A stretch of DNA of 64,000 nt from positions 27,512-91,511 of the IMG/VR virus record IMGVR_UViG_3300031952_000010; one strand, written 5' to 3'. Of this stretch, positions 27,331 to 47,333 are shown piece by piece. Source of the stretch: a virus. The translations under genes and the position numbers were made by a program. The notes beneath the pieces are model-generated. The model was not told where the DNA came from. It saw nothing but the letters and a program-made list of their open reading frames with translations, and did no database searches. Within the stretch, counting starts at the first letter, position 1. Each line of letters begins with the position of its first letter.

Positions 27331-27342
27331 GTTCTTTGACAT
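27331..27342 (+). promoter_or_regulatory. rrn-type boxA antitermination element
   Basis: GTTCTTTGACAT just before the first tRNA; recurs ahead of other RNA genes. Confidence 0.7.
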
Positions 27343-27358
27343 ATTGGTAAAAAGTAAA

Positions 27359-29196: not shown

Positions 29197-29558
29197 CAAA
29201 AAATGTTTGGAGAATTAAATAATTTGCCGTACATTTGTAATATAGAAGTAAGGGGGGTAGGTAGTTAGTGGGTTGGTGACCTACTCCCCTGACGAAAGAG
29301 TTCTTTGAATAAAATGTTGGTGGATGGTAAGAAACGGTAAACTCGTAAAGTGCATTAACCTGTTGATATGAAATGGTGAAACGAGAGTCCATATCAGCTA
29401 CTCATCACAATAAAAATATTGATAATGGTTTTCCCCATTCAACGAAGGTCGACTCTTCAGAATGGAATCGGAATTCATCACCCTTTGCTGAGGCCTCATT
29501 AAAACTCAGGAAGCAATTAAGATTGGAGCGAGACGGGTACTCCATCATTATTATACTT

Positions 29559-33192: not shown

Positions 33193-33261
33193 ATGTCTAA
33201 AAGTTGGTAATTAAATAAATTGTTGTATCTTTGTGAAACAATAAAGGGGATGAAACCCCGA

Positions 33262-33273
33262 GTTCTTTGACAT
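33262..33273 (+). promoter_or_regulatory. boxA element preceded by a boxB-like hairpin
   Basis: GGGG-atgaaa-CCCC then GTTCTTTGACAT. Confidence 0.7.
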
Positions 33274-33295
33274 GTTGGTTTGAAAAAAAAATTAA

Positions 33296-34615: not shown

Positions 34616-34813
34616 AAAACAAATCTTACATAAGACGGATTAGCACCGTTGAAAGGAACCTTGGCTTCACCGCGGAGTAATTACCGTAACAGAAGTTCTA
34701 AATGCCCCAAGGTACTATGTAATGGACCCTGCTCTGATGTGCACGTCAACAGGTGATGGGGAACAAACCATCGGTCAAATCTAAACCTACGGTGAGCGTA
34801 GAAGATTTGTTTT
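34616..34813 (+). ncRNA. Unidentified ~200-nt multibranched RNA
   Basis: 12-bp closing stem AAAACAAATCTT/AAGATTTGTTTT plus several internal stems; no ORF. Confidence 0.6.
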
Positions 34814-43641: not shown

Positions 43642-44310
43642 ATGAGACGATTATTAAACGAAACTTTACAAATACCAGACCCTTCAGATTATACAAACAC
43701 TGACTTCAAACCGTTTGTTGTTGGTAGAAGTAATCCGTTAGCAGATAAGATAAATCCATCCTTATTAAAAGATGTTGATACTGCAGCCAAAAAAGCTAAT
43801 ATTAAAGTTAGTATCACAACCGCGGTTAGTGGTCACGATAAAGGTTCTCGACATGAAAAAGGTTTAGCAGTTGATATAGCCATGATTAATGGTCAAGGAT
43901 ATGGTAGTGAAAAAGCTGCAAAACAAAAAGGTATTTACGACGACATTATGAGATTTGTTTCTGAGTTAGAAAAACTTGGATATACTAAAAATAGTGAATC
44001 GGGTAATGATAAAGCCGTTTTAACATTTGGGTTCCCAAATCACCATCACCATGTACATGTTTCAAGGAATTCAGATACTGGAGTGTCAGATAGTAATGGT
44101 AATGTTACTACAAACCCTAAACCTGATTCACAGGAAACTCCTGACTCAGGTGAAAACTACGATAATATTGATTTTGATACTTCGTCAGATAGTGATAACG
44201 TAATCCAAAAATTTTTAAATCCATTGTTAAGTACATTAGGATTTAAAGAAGGTGAAGAACCAACCAATAAATTAGTTGAGGATATCCAACGAATTAAAAA
44301 TTTATTATAA
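43642..44310 (+). CDS. Zinc peptidase, M15/Hedgehog-like fold
   Basis: SRHEKGLAVDI ... HHHHVHVS. Confidence 0.7.
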   Translation: MRRLLNETLQIPDPSDYTNTDFKPFVVGRSNPLADKINPSLLKDVDTAAKKANIKVSITTAVSGHDKGSRHEKGLAVDIAMINGQGYGSEKAAKQKGIYDDIMRFVSELEKLGYTKNSESGNDKAVLTFGFPNHHHHVHVSRNSDTGVSDSNGNVTTNPKPDSQETPDSGENYDNIDFDTSSDSDNVIQKFLNPLLSTLGFKEGEEPTNKLVEDIQRIKNLL

Positions 44311-44933
44311 TGGAAAAATTTACTAATCCAGCACCATATGGTAATATGAAATCATCAATAATGTCAAAATCTGTTGATTTAATTTCATATCCAAATTCAA
44401 AATTAATAAATCCGTATGATGGTGTTATTGTTTTTGACAGAACTCCTTCTTGTGAAAACTTAATTAAAATTAAACATGAGTTTAATGGCGATAATGTATA
44501 TTCTGAATTTTGTAATGTTGGTAAGTCATTTGTTTCACCAGGAGATAGAATAAAACAAGGTCAAATTATTGGACATTTCACTGACGATAGAATTGGGTAC
44601 TCAATTAAAAACGATGATGATAAAAAATTAGACGTGTCAAAATATATGGAAGGGTTTAAAACTAAAAAAGAGGAACCTAAAAAAGAGGAACCTAAAAAAG
44701 AGGAACCTAAAAAAGAAGACCCTGAAAAAAAGATTAATAAACTTGATGTCGGTAATAAAGACGTTGGTTCTGGTAATATATTCTTAGATACTTTACTATC
44801 CCCATTTTCAATTGCAAACGATATTACAAGTGGTGTTGGTAAAGAGATTAAGAAAGCCTTTAAAGAAGATTACGGTGGTAATAAAAGACTTACAGAACAA
44901 ATAGATAAGATTAAAAAAATTATAAAGTATTAA
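44310..44933 (+). CDS. Degenerate M23-like protein with KKEEP repeats
   Basis: PYDGVI, IKIKH, VSPGDRIKQGQIIG; catalytic HxH absent. Confidence 0.6.
   Translation: MEKFTNPAPYGNMKSSIMSKSVDLISYPNSKLINPYDGVIVFDRTPSCENLIKIKHEFNGDNVYSEFCNVGKSFVSPGDRIKQGQIIGHFTDDRIGYSIKNDDDKKLDVSKYMEGFKTKKEEPKKEEPKKEEPKKEDPEKKINKLDVGNKDVGSGNIFLDTLLSPFSIANDITSGVGKEIKKAFKEDYGGNKRLTEQIDKIKKIIKY
44665..44716 (+). repeat. 15-nt coding tandem repeat (KKEEP x3)
   Basis: AAAAAGAGGAACCTA repeated. Confidence 0.85.
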
Positions 44934-45145: not shown

Positions 45146-45380
45146 GTTATGTTTGTTTGTTTTTATTGATAAATAAATAGGTGATTGTTGACGTAAAATC
45201 AACTTATACTTTAAAATAATTTAGATTTTCTTAATAAAGTACACTATTTATCTAAAAAATAAAAAAATATACTGTTTAGGTATTGTTAGAACAGTTTTTT
45301 TTACTATCTTTGTAAAACAATTCAGGGAAATGGTTGGAGTATCTGTAAAACCGTGGATTCCTAACCTTGAAAAAAAAAAC

Positions 45381-45514
45381 AAAAAAAGATTTGGTAAATC
45401 AAAAAACTTTACCTACCTTTGTACAACAAAAGAGATAGACAACAATTCAGATACAAATCTCAAAAAAAAATAAAAAAAGATTTGGTAAATCAAAAAACTT
45501 TACCTATCTTTGTA
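45381..45514 (+). promoter_or_regulatory. Duplicated 43-nt promoter unit (tandem promoters) upstream of the large ncRNA
   Basis: 45381-45423 and 45472-45514 differ at one base; each has TTTG...TAyCTTTG; a third TATCTTTG at 45305. Confidence 0.85.
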
Positions 45515-45538
45515 AAACAAATCGGAAGAGTCCGAAAC

Positions 45539-45550
45539 GTTCTTTGAAAA
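45539..45550 (+). promoter_or_regulatory. boxA element after a boxB-like hairpin
   Basis: TCGGA-agag-TCCGA then GTTCTTTGAAAA. Confidence 0.7.
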
Positions 45551-45559
45551 ATATTATTT

Positions 45560-46435
45560 ATCCGTCAGGATGTTGATGCTGAGACCTTCGGGTTGATTCT
45601 GAGATAACTGAGAAAGATAATCGGCCGTATATGGTCGTTAAATAAACCTCGAAAGGGGGATAAAGTGGAATCATCTGTGTTAGTGGTTCTGCGGTTTGGG
45701 AAACCAAACTCAAGTATACAAGTGGGATATCAGTGAGCCTGTAGTACCGAGGATGACTTCGTAGGGAAATGGAAAACTGAATGGGCAATGTGGATTGTCT
45801 GTTTGAGGTGGGAACACCAATAAGAATAACCCATAGGAATCAAGTGAGAAGTGTACTTCCAAATACACAATTGCGGGTTCCAATATAAAAGGTGACTTAA
45901 AACCGAAGGGGTAATACCTGAAGGTAAGATATAGAACGAGTGGTGTCGCTAATATCCTTACCAAAGGCCTACCAAGGTCTTGGTACGAAGTAATCTTAAA
46001 ATATGAGAGTGGGGACACTCTACTGAGTAGAAAAGTATCTTGTTATTCAAAAGATAACGAGGCTTAAGACGGACCTCTACTTGGAACCATCCACAACACT
46101 AAAAACTTATATGCTATTTTAAGTAAAACTAAAAAACAGATAAGCAAAAGTGTTCGTCAGGGTTTGATGAAAGTCGCCTACACAGTCACGGGTTGTCCGT
46201 GGCATACAGAGACCGCAAGTTAATGTATATTTTTACAAAAAACCTCTAGGGAGTCGAATCCCGAGTTAGTTCGCAAGACTGAAGAGAGTAGAGTAGTAAA
46301 AGAGTAGTTGAACCCTTTAGGAGTGATTGGTCTAACCAATCGGCGATGAGGATTACCATTCAAAAGATGGTGGAAATGAAGGGAAACAATAATCCTTCTA
46401 AAGATTCTCACAAAACGGTGTATTCTCAGCCTTTT
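45560..46435 (+). ncRNA. Large ornate ncRNA (~0.85 kb; GOLLD-like or novel)
   Basis: No credible ORF; raised GC; many hairpins with UUCG/GNRA loops; GCTGAGA (45578) complementary to TCTCAGC (46424). Confidence 0.75.
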
Positions 46436-46830
46436 AGCCTAACTATGAAAACAGTGACTCCAACCGAGGTAATTACGGTATATTCCTCGAGGTAATGAGT
46501 TTAAACTTCCCCTTAAAAAAGTCCCATAGAGTGTGTTTTTGGTTTTTTACTATGTTACAACCTTTATCTACTCTGATTGAGAAATCCAAAAAACAAGTGT
46601 GTTTGTGTCAAGATAAGACATCTTCTCTAAAAGATAAAAAACATCAACACCGATATTCTTAGGTTGTGGATTTTTATGATAACCACAGGTTTTTTATAGG
46701 TGTCTAAATAAGTAAAAAACTAAAAAACATAGACGTTTAGGTCGCGAATTCACCTCACGATAGAAGGTCCCATTCGGTGTCACAAACTGATGGAGTGGTT
46801 AAGGTTGTACCACTGAGTAAAAAGCCCAAC

Positions 46831-46862
46831 GGGAGTAACATGACGATGTTACTCCCTTTTTT
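46831..46862 (+). terminator. Intrinsic terminator of the ncRNA transcript
   Basis: GGGAGTAACAT-gacg-ATGTTACTCCC-TTTTTT. Confidence 0.9.
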
Positions 46863-46947
46863 ATGCTATAAAAACTAATTTTTGTACAACACCAAATAAT
46901 AATTTTACCGCATAAAAAAACCCCATCCGAAGATGAGGTTTAATGAG

Positions 46948-47333
46948 TGGAGGTAGAGGGGTTCGAACCCTCGTGTTGTACACCTTACCTATTAAGGACT
47001 ACACGCTTAGGATAACATTTTCTAATGTTCCAAAAATATTTAGTTTGTTCTTCACCATCGTAAACTAACAACCAATGGACGACTCGATTTTGGGTTCAGT
47101 CATTTTTCCACCTTTGTAAAGACTTCTGTTCCTAGGTTGTATGTCCACCGACCCGTATGGTGTTTCCTATATGTTAGGCAACAACCGCAGCGTCTTCACG
47201 GATTAATCCGATGGTCGCCATTTTGTCTAAAACGTTTCCGTTTACAGTTTACATCCGTAGATTTAAGTGATAGGATACATCTCACTGCGTGCCCCGAATA
47301 ACTAACAATGCCAGTCAATTCCAAGTTACCCCC
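46948..47333 (-). ncRNA. ssrA: tmRNA
   Basis: 5' GGGGGUA pairs with 3' UACCUCC-A including G3.U; T arm GAGGGUUCGAACCCCUC; tag ORF 47239-47174 GNVLDKMATIGLIREDAAVVA; boxA upstream, terminator downstream. Confidence 0.92.

Follow-up and report, generated by a model that had tools for sequence, protein, structure and literature searches.

A GOLLD RNA gene with tandem promoters and a boxA-like leader in a genome fragment of a putative Bacteroidota huge phage

The locus and the identity of its RNA

The DNA considered here is a stretch of 64,000 nucleotides (nt) from the IMG/VR virus record IMGVR_UViG_3300031952_000010, a contig of 91.5 kb. It comprises bases 27512-91511 of that contig and is referred to below, at its full length, as the window. 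Positions 45517-46436 on its + strand are the gene for a GOLLD RNA, a typical lake-type member of a known family. A sequence-only reading of the stretch had placed here a large, ornate non-coding RNA expressed like a ribosomal RNA (rRNA) operon, which was taken to be either a relative of GOLLD or a new class. A scan of the whole window identifies a match to the Rfam family RF02032 (GOLLD) at 46023-46432 (+) with 320.3 bits (E = 6e-91), where the curated cut-off is 150 bits, and the match covers model positions 1-416 without truncation. The Rfam comparison that the sequence-only reading had suggested thus lowers the novelty of the RNA while confirming it, and of the two identities proposed it is GOLLD that stands. 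The features of the locus are as follows.

45282-45312 (+): predicted promoter P1, with ATTG in the -33 region and the -7 box TATCTTTG at 45305-45312; putative start near 45317
45390-45421 (+): predicted promoter P2, with TTTG, 20 nt and TACCTTTG, the box starting at 45414; putative start near 45426; repeat copy 1
45481-45512 (+): predicted promoter P3, with TTTG, 20 nt and TATCTTTG, the box starting at 45505; putative start near 45517; repeat copy 2
45522-45535 (+): covarying leader hairpin in the boxB position, UCGG-AAGAGU-CCGA
45539-45549 (+): boxA-like word GTTCTTTGAAA, with GTTCTTTGAA at 45539-45548, kept in relatives
45558-45620 (+): remainder of the leader of about 100 nt, with the conserved UUAUCC(R)UUCAGGA and then a hairpin insert at about 45572-45612
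45621-46022 (+): GOLLD 5′ domain, corresponding approximately to env-38 residues 1-420, in collinear blocks
46023-46432 (+): GOLLD 3′ domain, with the RF02032 match and covariation
46265-46282 (+): P21b-like hairpin within the 3′ domain
46416-46432 (+): terminal hairpin with an invariant UCUCAG loop, within the 3′ domain
46433-46436 (+): short U tract after the last stem, where similarity to homologs stops
46831-46856 (+): first strong intrinsic terminator on this strand, an 11-bp stem followed by a T run

The Rfam match lies in the 3′ half of the RNA. The 5′ half (45621-46022) was compared side by side, by eye, with the GOLLD env-38 construct, the sequence of which is printed in the supplement of the work that describes it (Kretsch et al., 2025; PMC12286853), and it presents the same ordered blocks as the env-38 5′ region, including the hairpin insert after AAAACCGAA. 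Since RF02032 accounts for the 3′ half and the 5′ half is collinear with env-38, the locus has a complete GOLLD of the lake/marine type, with both of its domains. When 45250-46900 was scanned again at E ≤ 1, no second Rfam family was returned except for a chance match on the downstream terminator, and the ROOL model had no match there, either at its gathering score or at E ≤ 1. The base composition and coding content described by the sequence-only reading also hold. The G+C content is 0.40-0.41 within the RNA region vs 0.24-0.32 in the flanks, and the region is free of open reading frames (ORFs) in the sense that those on the + strand reach at most 47 amino acids (aa), with ORFs of up to 102 aa (and another of 76 aa) on the - strand. 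All of the hairpins that had been named were found in the RNA region.

Homologs, consensus fold and the 3′ end

A conserved GOLLD word matched at least 119 IMG/VR stretches, and BLAST shows the whole unit to be kept in more than 100 of them at identities from 99% down to about 67%. The similarity always stops at 46430-46439 and starts at P3 or farther upstream. From these data 63 distinct full-length IMG/VR homologs were aligned (alignment A1). The RNAalifold consensus on A1 comprises 228 pairs in 42 helices, with standard pairs in 96.4% of cells vs 38-44% when the partners are slid by 1-3 columns. Both sides change in 145 of the 228 pairs, and none of 500 shuffles matched the observed values. 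The covariation among homologs, which had been named as a check on the RNA, is therefore present, and it extends over both GOLLD domains. In the 5′ domain, helices 3-23 mostly carry compensatory changes, while the A/U-rich and poorly aligned variable linker at about 46085-46149 corresponds to the unpaired part of the RF02032 model.

Within the 3′ domain, the P21a-like hairpin at 46249-46262 falls into two loop classes, GUCGAA (the window and 17 others) and CGCAAG (44 sequences). In env-38, the self-complementary loop L21a shows a GC/CG switch and forms the inter-half cage bridge B8 (PMC12286853). The two loop classes would fit this published switch, where the mapping of 46249-46262 onto L21a is one that we infer.

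Because similarity to the homologs ends there, 46433-46436 is the likely 3′ end of GOLLD or a likely processing point. At least five T occur in the 8 nt that follow the last stem in 47 of 68 loci. In 11 of the 68, a tRNA-Met gene begins 10-19 nt downstream of GOLLD, and processing of that transfer RNA (tRNA) could therefore define the GOLLD end. A transcript that read through would be stopped by the terminator at 46831-46856.

Several observations concern the segment downstream of the gene. At 46433-46465 (+), the tRNA-Met (CAU) of these 11 relatives stands between the GOLLD 3′ end and AGUGACUCC; the window joins both flanks (AGCC...AGTGACTCC) without a tRNA, as if it had been lost or never inserted. 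The approximately 410 nt at 46451-46862 (+), between GOLLD and the terminator, open with AGUGACUCC and contain no convincing ORF. In 16 distinct loci, GOLLD (or GOLLD plus tRNA-Met) is followed by a unit of 370-450 nt that likewise opens with this word and ends in an intrinsic terminator of its own. This segment may be a second co-transcribed RNA; aligned with 15 relatives, the trailer of the window (46451-46862) was too divergent for a consensus fold (median identity 53%, 12 pairs). GOLLD and the transfer-messenger RNA (tmRNA) gene on the opposite strand converge on back-to-back terminators at 46831-46856 (+) and 46941-46918 (-).

The trailer also includes a segment (46451-46465) that is complementary to 45332-45346 in the leader over 13 of 15 nt (-23 kcal/mol; equalled by 0 of 100 shuffled trailers). 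This leader-trailer stem is found in the window and two near-identical relatives; it is less pronounced in the L077 group, where 4 of 100 shuffles equal it, and elsewhere does no better than shuffles. An rRNA-like leader-trailer stem was thus rejected as a general feature, being lineage-specific or due to chance and not kept in distant relatives.

The leader and the boxA word in phage and host

The three predicted promoters are of the Bacteroidota sigma-A type, stand in tandem and face GOLLD. The TAnnTTTG boxes reported by the sequence-only reading start at 45305, 45414 and 45505, and the duplication it saw in the promoter region is a 60-nt repeat of 95% identity (45371-45430 and 45462-45521) that holds P2 and P3. 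A TTTG -33 element is present in P2 and P3; P1 has just ATTG. Transcription would start near 45317, 45426 and 45517, since the -7 box of Flavobacterium sits at -12 to -5 (PMC9723704). Conservation of P1 is limited to the 8 closest loci, and P3 is the promoter retained in most relatives. The window contains 17 matches to TTTG-N17-21-TAnnTTTG, where 4.3 are expected.

Downstream of P3, the hairpin and boxA that had been noticed were recovered at 45522-45535 and, as GTTCTTTGAA, at 45539-45548. The hairpin covaries, with double changes in 4 of 5 pairs of alignment A2 and 94% of cells paired vs 18-60% when the partners are slid. The word GTTCTTTGAA is exact in 57 of the 63 homologs and differs by one letter in the remaining 6. 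A -7 box lies no more than 45 nt upstream of it in 47 of the 63, starting 34-36 nt upstream in 44. Without pre-selection of loci, the boxA word is found 380-520 nt before the 3′ domain in 67 of the 69 distinct loci with enough upstream sequence. Compared with GYTCTTTAANA, a gamma-proteobacterial consensus, GTTCTTTGAAA matches at 10 of 11 positions. TATCC follows the boxA word in 54 of the 63 homologs, and the hairpin insert at about 45572-45612, which carries GCTGAGA, is specific to this lineage and absent from close relatives. Any transcript from P1-P3 would cross the covarying hairpin and GUUCUUUGAAA, with the GOLLD fold beginning about 70 nt later.

This leader lies outside the env-38 construct. 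The boxA word does not occur in the examined part of the published GOLLD alignment (PMC12286853), and a full-text literature search for a link between GOLLD and boxA returned no such paper, its matches being unrelated plant papers.

The same word marks other stable-RNA units of the phage. The 91.5-kb contig has four copies of the 9-mer GTTCTTTGA, every one on the + strand and ahead of a tRNA block or GOLLD. These sites, from a word search of the contig, and the neighbouring tmRNA gene are as follows.

27331 (+): GTTCTTTGA ahead of a tRNA block
29300 (+): GTTCTTTGA ahead of a tRNA block
33262 (+): GTTCTTTGA ahead of a tRNA block
45539 (+): GTTCTTTGA ahead of GOLLD
46945-47333 (-): tmRNA gene (Rfam, 68.5 bits; not listed by ARAGORN), convergent with GOLLD

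The tRNA-leader copies of the boxA word in the phage read GTTCTTTGACATATTGG and GTTCTTTGACATGTTGG. At 27331-27347, 29300-29320 and 33262-33278 (+), each tRNA block is preceded by GTTCTTTGAC/A, which continues into ATATTGG, ATGTTGG or a variant. At 33230-33271 the order of promoter, hairpin and boxA is identical to that of GOLLD. The tmRNA promoter at 47390-47360 (-) is a close copy of P2 and P3 and a member of their family. It is followed by GTTCTTTAACA, which agrees with the gamma-proteobacterial boxA consensus GYTCTTTAANA at every position.

Among phages in GenBank, the only relatives are LR745206.1 (635 kb) and LR756502.1 (642 kb), both with GOLLD. In LR745206.1 (L002:2800-4345), a single gene-free cassette comprises repeated promoter-boxA-tRNA units and, after them, a hairpin, GTTCTTTGAA and GOLLD. 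In LR756502.1 (L003), promoter, tRNA and GOLLD follow each other without the boxA word.

The rRNA operons (rrn) of 31 Flavobacteriaceae genomes were surveyed for comparison. Their leaders carry GTTCATTGACATATTG or a close variant in most of those that could be examined (17 by our count), 116-224 nt before the 16S gene and after a TATATTTG promoter and a hairpin. The host word is present again in 19 of the 20 distinct 16S-23S spacers, one of which carries GTTCTTTGACATATTG, exactly the word of the phage tRNA leaders. A word that stands in the leader and again in the spacer is what classically marks the rrn boxA (PMC10250234). Judged by its letters, GTTCTTTGAA is near-identical to the leader and spacer word of Flavobacteriaceae rrn operons. 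At the level of sequence signals, the rRNA-operon-like expression put forward by the sequence-only reading is thus borne out by the tandem promoters, the covarying hairpin and a boxA that is common to tRNA units, tmRNA and host rrn operons.

One Flavobacteriaceae chromosome (G025) has a comparable arrangement (L155:1-2100), in which ten tRNA genes, a tRNA-like remnant and GTTCATTGAAA precede a GOLLD-like match that is followed by a second GTTCATTGAAA. The match (locus 1501-1977) is full-length and sub-threshold at 127.7 bits, and is the one match obtained from the 41 Flavobacteriaceae genomes sampled. It represents a GOLLD-like unit, chromosomal or integrated, that shares the leader word. Two other Flavobacteriaceae matches, from a search of genome contigs with the GOLLD word, were rejected as not GOLLD.

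The wider context is that of a phage rich in tRNA genes. GOLLD lies in phage DNA near tRNA genes, of which the window has 27; in 11 of 68 relatives a tRNA-Met follows GOLLD. A freshwater-1 RNA motif (RF02979, 84 bits) occurs at 34718-34779 (+), inside the second tRNA array, and a Peptidase_M23 domain at 44310-44933 is the sole domain found among the flanking proteins. The contig has a CheckV completeness of 31% and is therefore a fragment of a very large phage. Phage genomes larger than 634 kb are all predicted to replicate in Bacteroidetes. Twenty sequencing runs that contain the sequence are of freshwater and sediment origin. Given the promoter type, the boxA word, the GenBank relatives and the freshwater and sediment runs, the host probably belongs to Bacteroidota, among Flavobacteriaceae-like lake bacteria. 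Of the words sampled from 45300-46500, 52-54% are present in each of six metatranscriptome runs of freshwater or lake origin, which come from six studies. This is compatible with expression and proves nothing about the ends or the level of the transcript.

Competing readings, known relatives and significance

Taken as a whole, the locus is best explained, and with good likelihood, as a GOLLD gene with an rrn-style boxA leader in a huge phage of Bacteroidota, encoding a cage RNA. In the mechanism proposed, GUUCUUUGAAA is the boxA of the host rRNA operons and would recruit NusB/NusE and other Nus factors. RNA polymerase modified in this manner would be fast and resistant to Rho on an untranslated RNA of about 0.9 kb, and the Nus complex might also aid the co-transcriptional folding of GOLLD. 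The tRNA blocks and the tmRNA of the phage would be transcribed likewise. From its sequence, the word is fairly likely to act in this way, by recruiting NusB/NusE and the Nus complex for Rho-resistant, processive transcription. Copies of GOLLD would then assemble into a closed cage with the A/U-rich linker inside, which might hold or shield RNAs or ribosome-related cargo. By analogy with env-38, a closed homo-oligomeric cage is the likely product. It is probably a 14-mer, with a stoichiometry that is uncertain because the number of subunits among GOLLD relatives is 10, 12 or 14, according to which helices are present (PMC12990946).

A number of points weigh against this interpretation. The assignment of boxA function is based on sequence and position, that of cage formation on homology to env-38, and that of the host on indirect pointers. 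The virus is represented by a fragment that CheckV places at 31% of the genome; profiles of NusB, NusG and S10 had no match in these 91.5 kb, and since they make up only about 31% of the genome this negative says nothing about the whole phage. No boxC-like element was recognised after boxA, where the conserved UUAUCC(R)UUCAGGA stands, a word that we take to differ from the boxC of E. coli. As a terminator, the last hairpin with its four U is weak, and the first strong one comes 400 nt later, which leaves the mature 3′ end without a fixed position. Finally, in helix 1 of the RNAalifold consensus the UCUUUGA of the boxA word pairs with the conserved UCAAGGA of the 3′ domain, and a structural role for the boxA word is therefore possible.

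This last point leads to the alternative that survives best, namely that the RNA is GOLLD and GTTCTTTGAA is a structural or processing element, through pairing with UCAAGGA or as a mark for RNase cleavage, instead of a Nus site. In the consensus fold, columns 82-88 of A1 pair with columns 984-990 in 93% of cells, and the boxA word stands about 10 nt before the conserved UUAUCC, which can pair with GGAUAA in the 5′ domain (helix 2). However, helix 1 has no pair with a double change and has a mismatch in mid-helix in 16 of the 63 sequences. Moreover, the word is also found before tRNA blocks, which have no GOLLD 3′ domain as a partner, and in the leaders and spacers of host rrn operons, and the env-38 construct still forms a cage without the leader. 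The pairing of boxA with the 3′ domain, lacking covariation and mismatched in these 16 sequences, was rejected as unsupported and kept as a rival only, and the structural role as a whole appears unlikely.

Far less probable is a closure of the molecule by pairing of its ends. The complementary GCTGAGA (45578-45584) and TCTCAGC (46424-46430), to which the sequence-only reading had drawn attention, are present and are paired in the minimum-energy fold of the single sequence, but the pairing is not conserved. GCTGAGA is found only in this sequence, the 98%-identical relative L024 differs by a letter there, and YTGAGA is missing from the 120 nt after boxA in 54 of the 63 homologs. In env-38, the UCUCAG loop (L27) has contacts within the 3′ domain (PMC12286853). 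As GCTGAGA is part of a lineage-specific insert and the invariant UCUCAG forms the loop of the final hairpin, the end pairing is not a conserved feature; it was rejected as unique to this sequence and no better than chance.

A new RNA class, with a GOLLD-like 3′ module joined to an unrelated 5′ half, is a still more remote prospect. The Rfam model spans only the 3′ 410 nt, and variable 5′ regions of GOLLD are already known, but the 5′ half here aligns blockwise with env-38, including the insert after AAAACCGAA, and no other Rfam family appears even at E ≤ 1. A protein-coding stretch or a mere long mRNA leader has next to nothing to recommend it beyond ORFs of 76 and 102 aa (-) and 47 aa (+), when the substitutions fit a paired RNA with compensatory changes in 145 pairs, the neighbouring 55-aa ORF (46495-46662) has no match in Pfam or PHROGs, and the + strand has no protein gene before the terminator at 46831.

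The GOLLD gene with an rrn-style leader can then be set beside systems that are already described. Its closest counterpart is GOLLD env-38, for which cryo-EM revealed a 14-mer cage (Kretsch et al., 2025; PMC12286853). Both RNAs have the two-domain layout, with both domains collinear and a core of about 812 nt here vs 833 nt, as well as an A/U-rich internal linker, P21a-like and P21b-like hairpins and a UCUCAG terminal loop, and the two were found close to tRNA genes in viral DNA from aquatic metagenomes. They differ in that the window copy has no adjacent tRNA-Met (which is present in 11 of 68 relatives), that it has the CG (UCGA) variant of the P21a-like loop, and that the part corresponding to the solved construct is preceded by a leader of about 100 nt in which the hairpin and boxA stand; also, the cage here is predicted by homology. 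The GOLLD of Streptococcus agalactiae belongs to the same family and shares the conserved 3′ domain, but forms a 12-mer and has no P9, P11a-c or P21b (PMC12990946), whereas the window RNA, like env-38, has two hairpins at the P21a/P21b position.

The bacterial rrn leader combines tandem promoters, boxB-boxA-boxC and an antitermination complex of Nus factors and SuhB (PMC10250234, PMC5725501). The leader described here resembles it in its strong tandem promoters, in a hairpin followed by boxA and in the untranslated structured RNA downstream. In contrast, its cargo is a phage cage RNA instead of rRNA, it has no recognised boxC, and its leader-trailer stem occurs in this lineage only. Use of host boxA and Nus factors by a phage against termination, which is suggested here by the sequence, is familiar from lambda nut (PMC2800207). 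There, however, boxA precedes boxB, which is bound by the phage protein N (PMC2800207), whereas the GOLLD leader follows the rrn order, in which the hairpin comes before boxA, and is not known to have an N-like factor.

ROOL is likewise a large, ornate, cage-forming RNA that is associated with phages and tRNA genes, forming 8-mers and lying in phage tRNA islands (PMC12286853). Its sequence and fold are unrelated to those of GOLLD, and the window has no ROOL match. In the ROOL alignment supplement of the same work, GUUCUUUGA was found at least four times, and the rows displayed, from human-gut metagenome scaffolds, start with the boxA-like UGUUCUUUGAUAUG at an apparent 5′ edge. Within that part of the supplement, these are hints that other cage RNAs may carry boxA-like leaders.

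GOLLD is among the largest non-coding RNAs of bacteria and phages besides rRNA, and its 14-mer cage is bigger than the ribosome. No new class is added by this locus. It is a clear case of the RNA having its expression signals in common with a complete phage tRNA set and a tmRNA, signals that copy those of host rRNA operons, and GOLLD is thereby tied to the translation apparatus through its regulation and not just through its position. The alignment of 63 sequences of graded divergence includes the leader, which published alignments do not, and can be reused for structure-function work. The balance tips somewhat towards the view that this leader is an integral, conserved and hitherto unpublished part of GOLLD units in Bacteroidota phages, and that these units form, together with tRNAs and tmRNA, one Nus-dependent 'stable RNA regulon'. 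Because the leader and promoter family are common to GOLLD, the tRNA set and the tmRNA, a part in the phage's takeover of translation is the most likely role for the cage, one that is put forward only tentatively. If this is true, the phage copies the signals of host rRNA operons to mass-produce a cage RNA for translation takeover.

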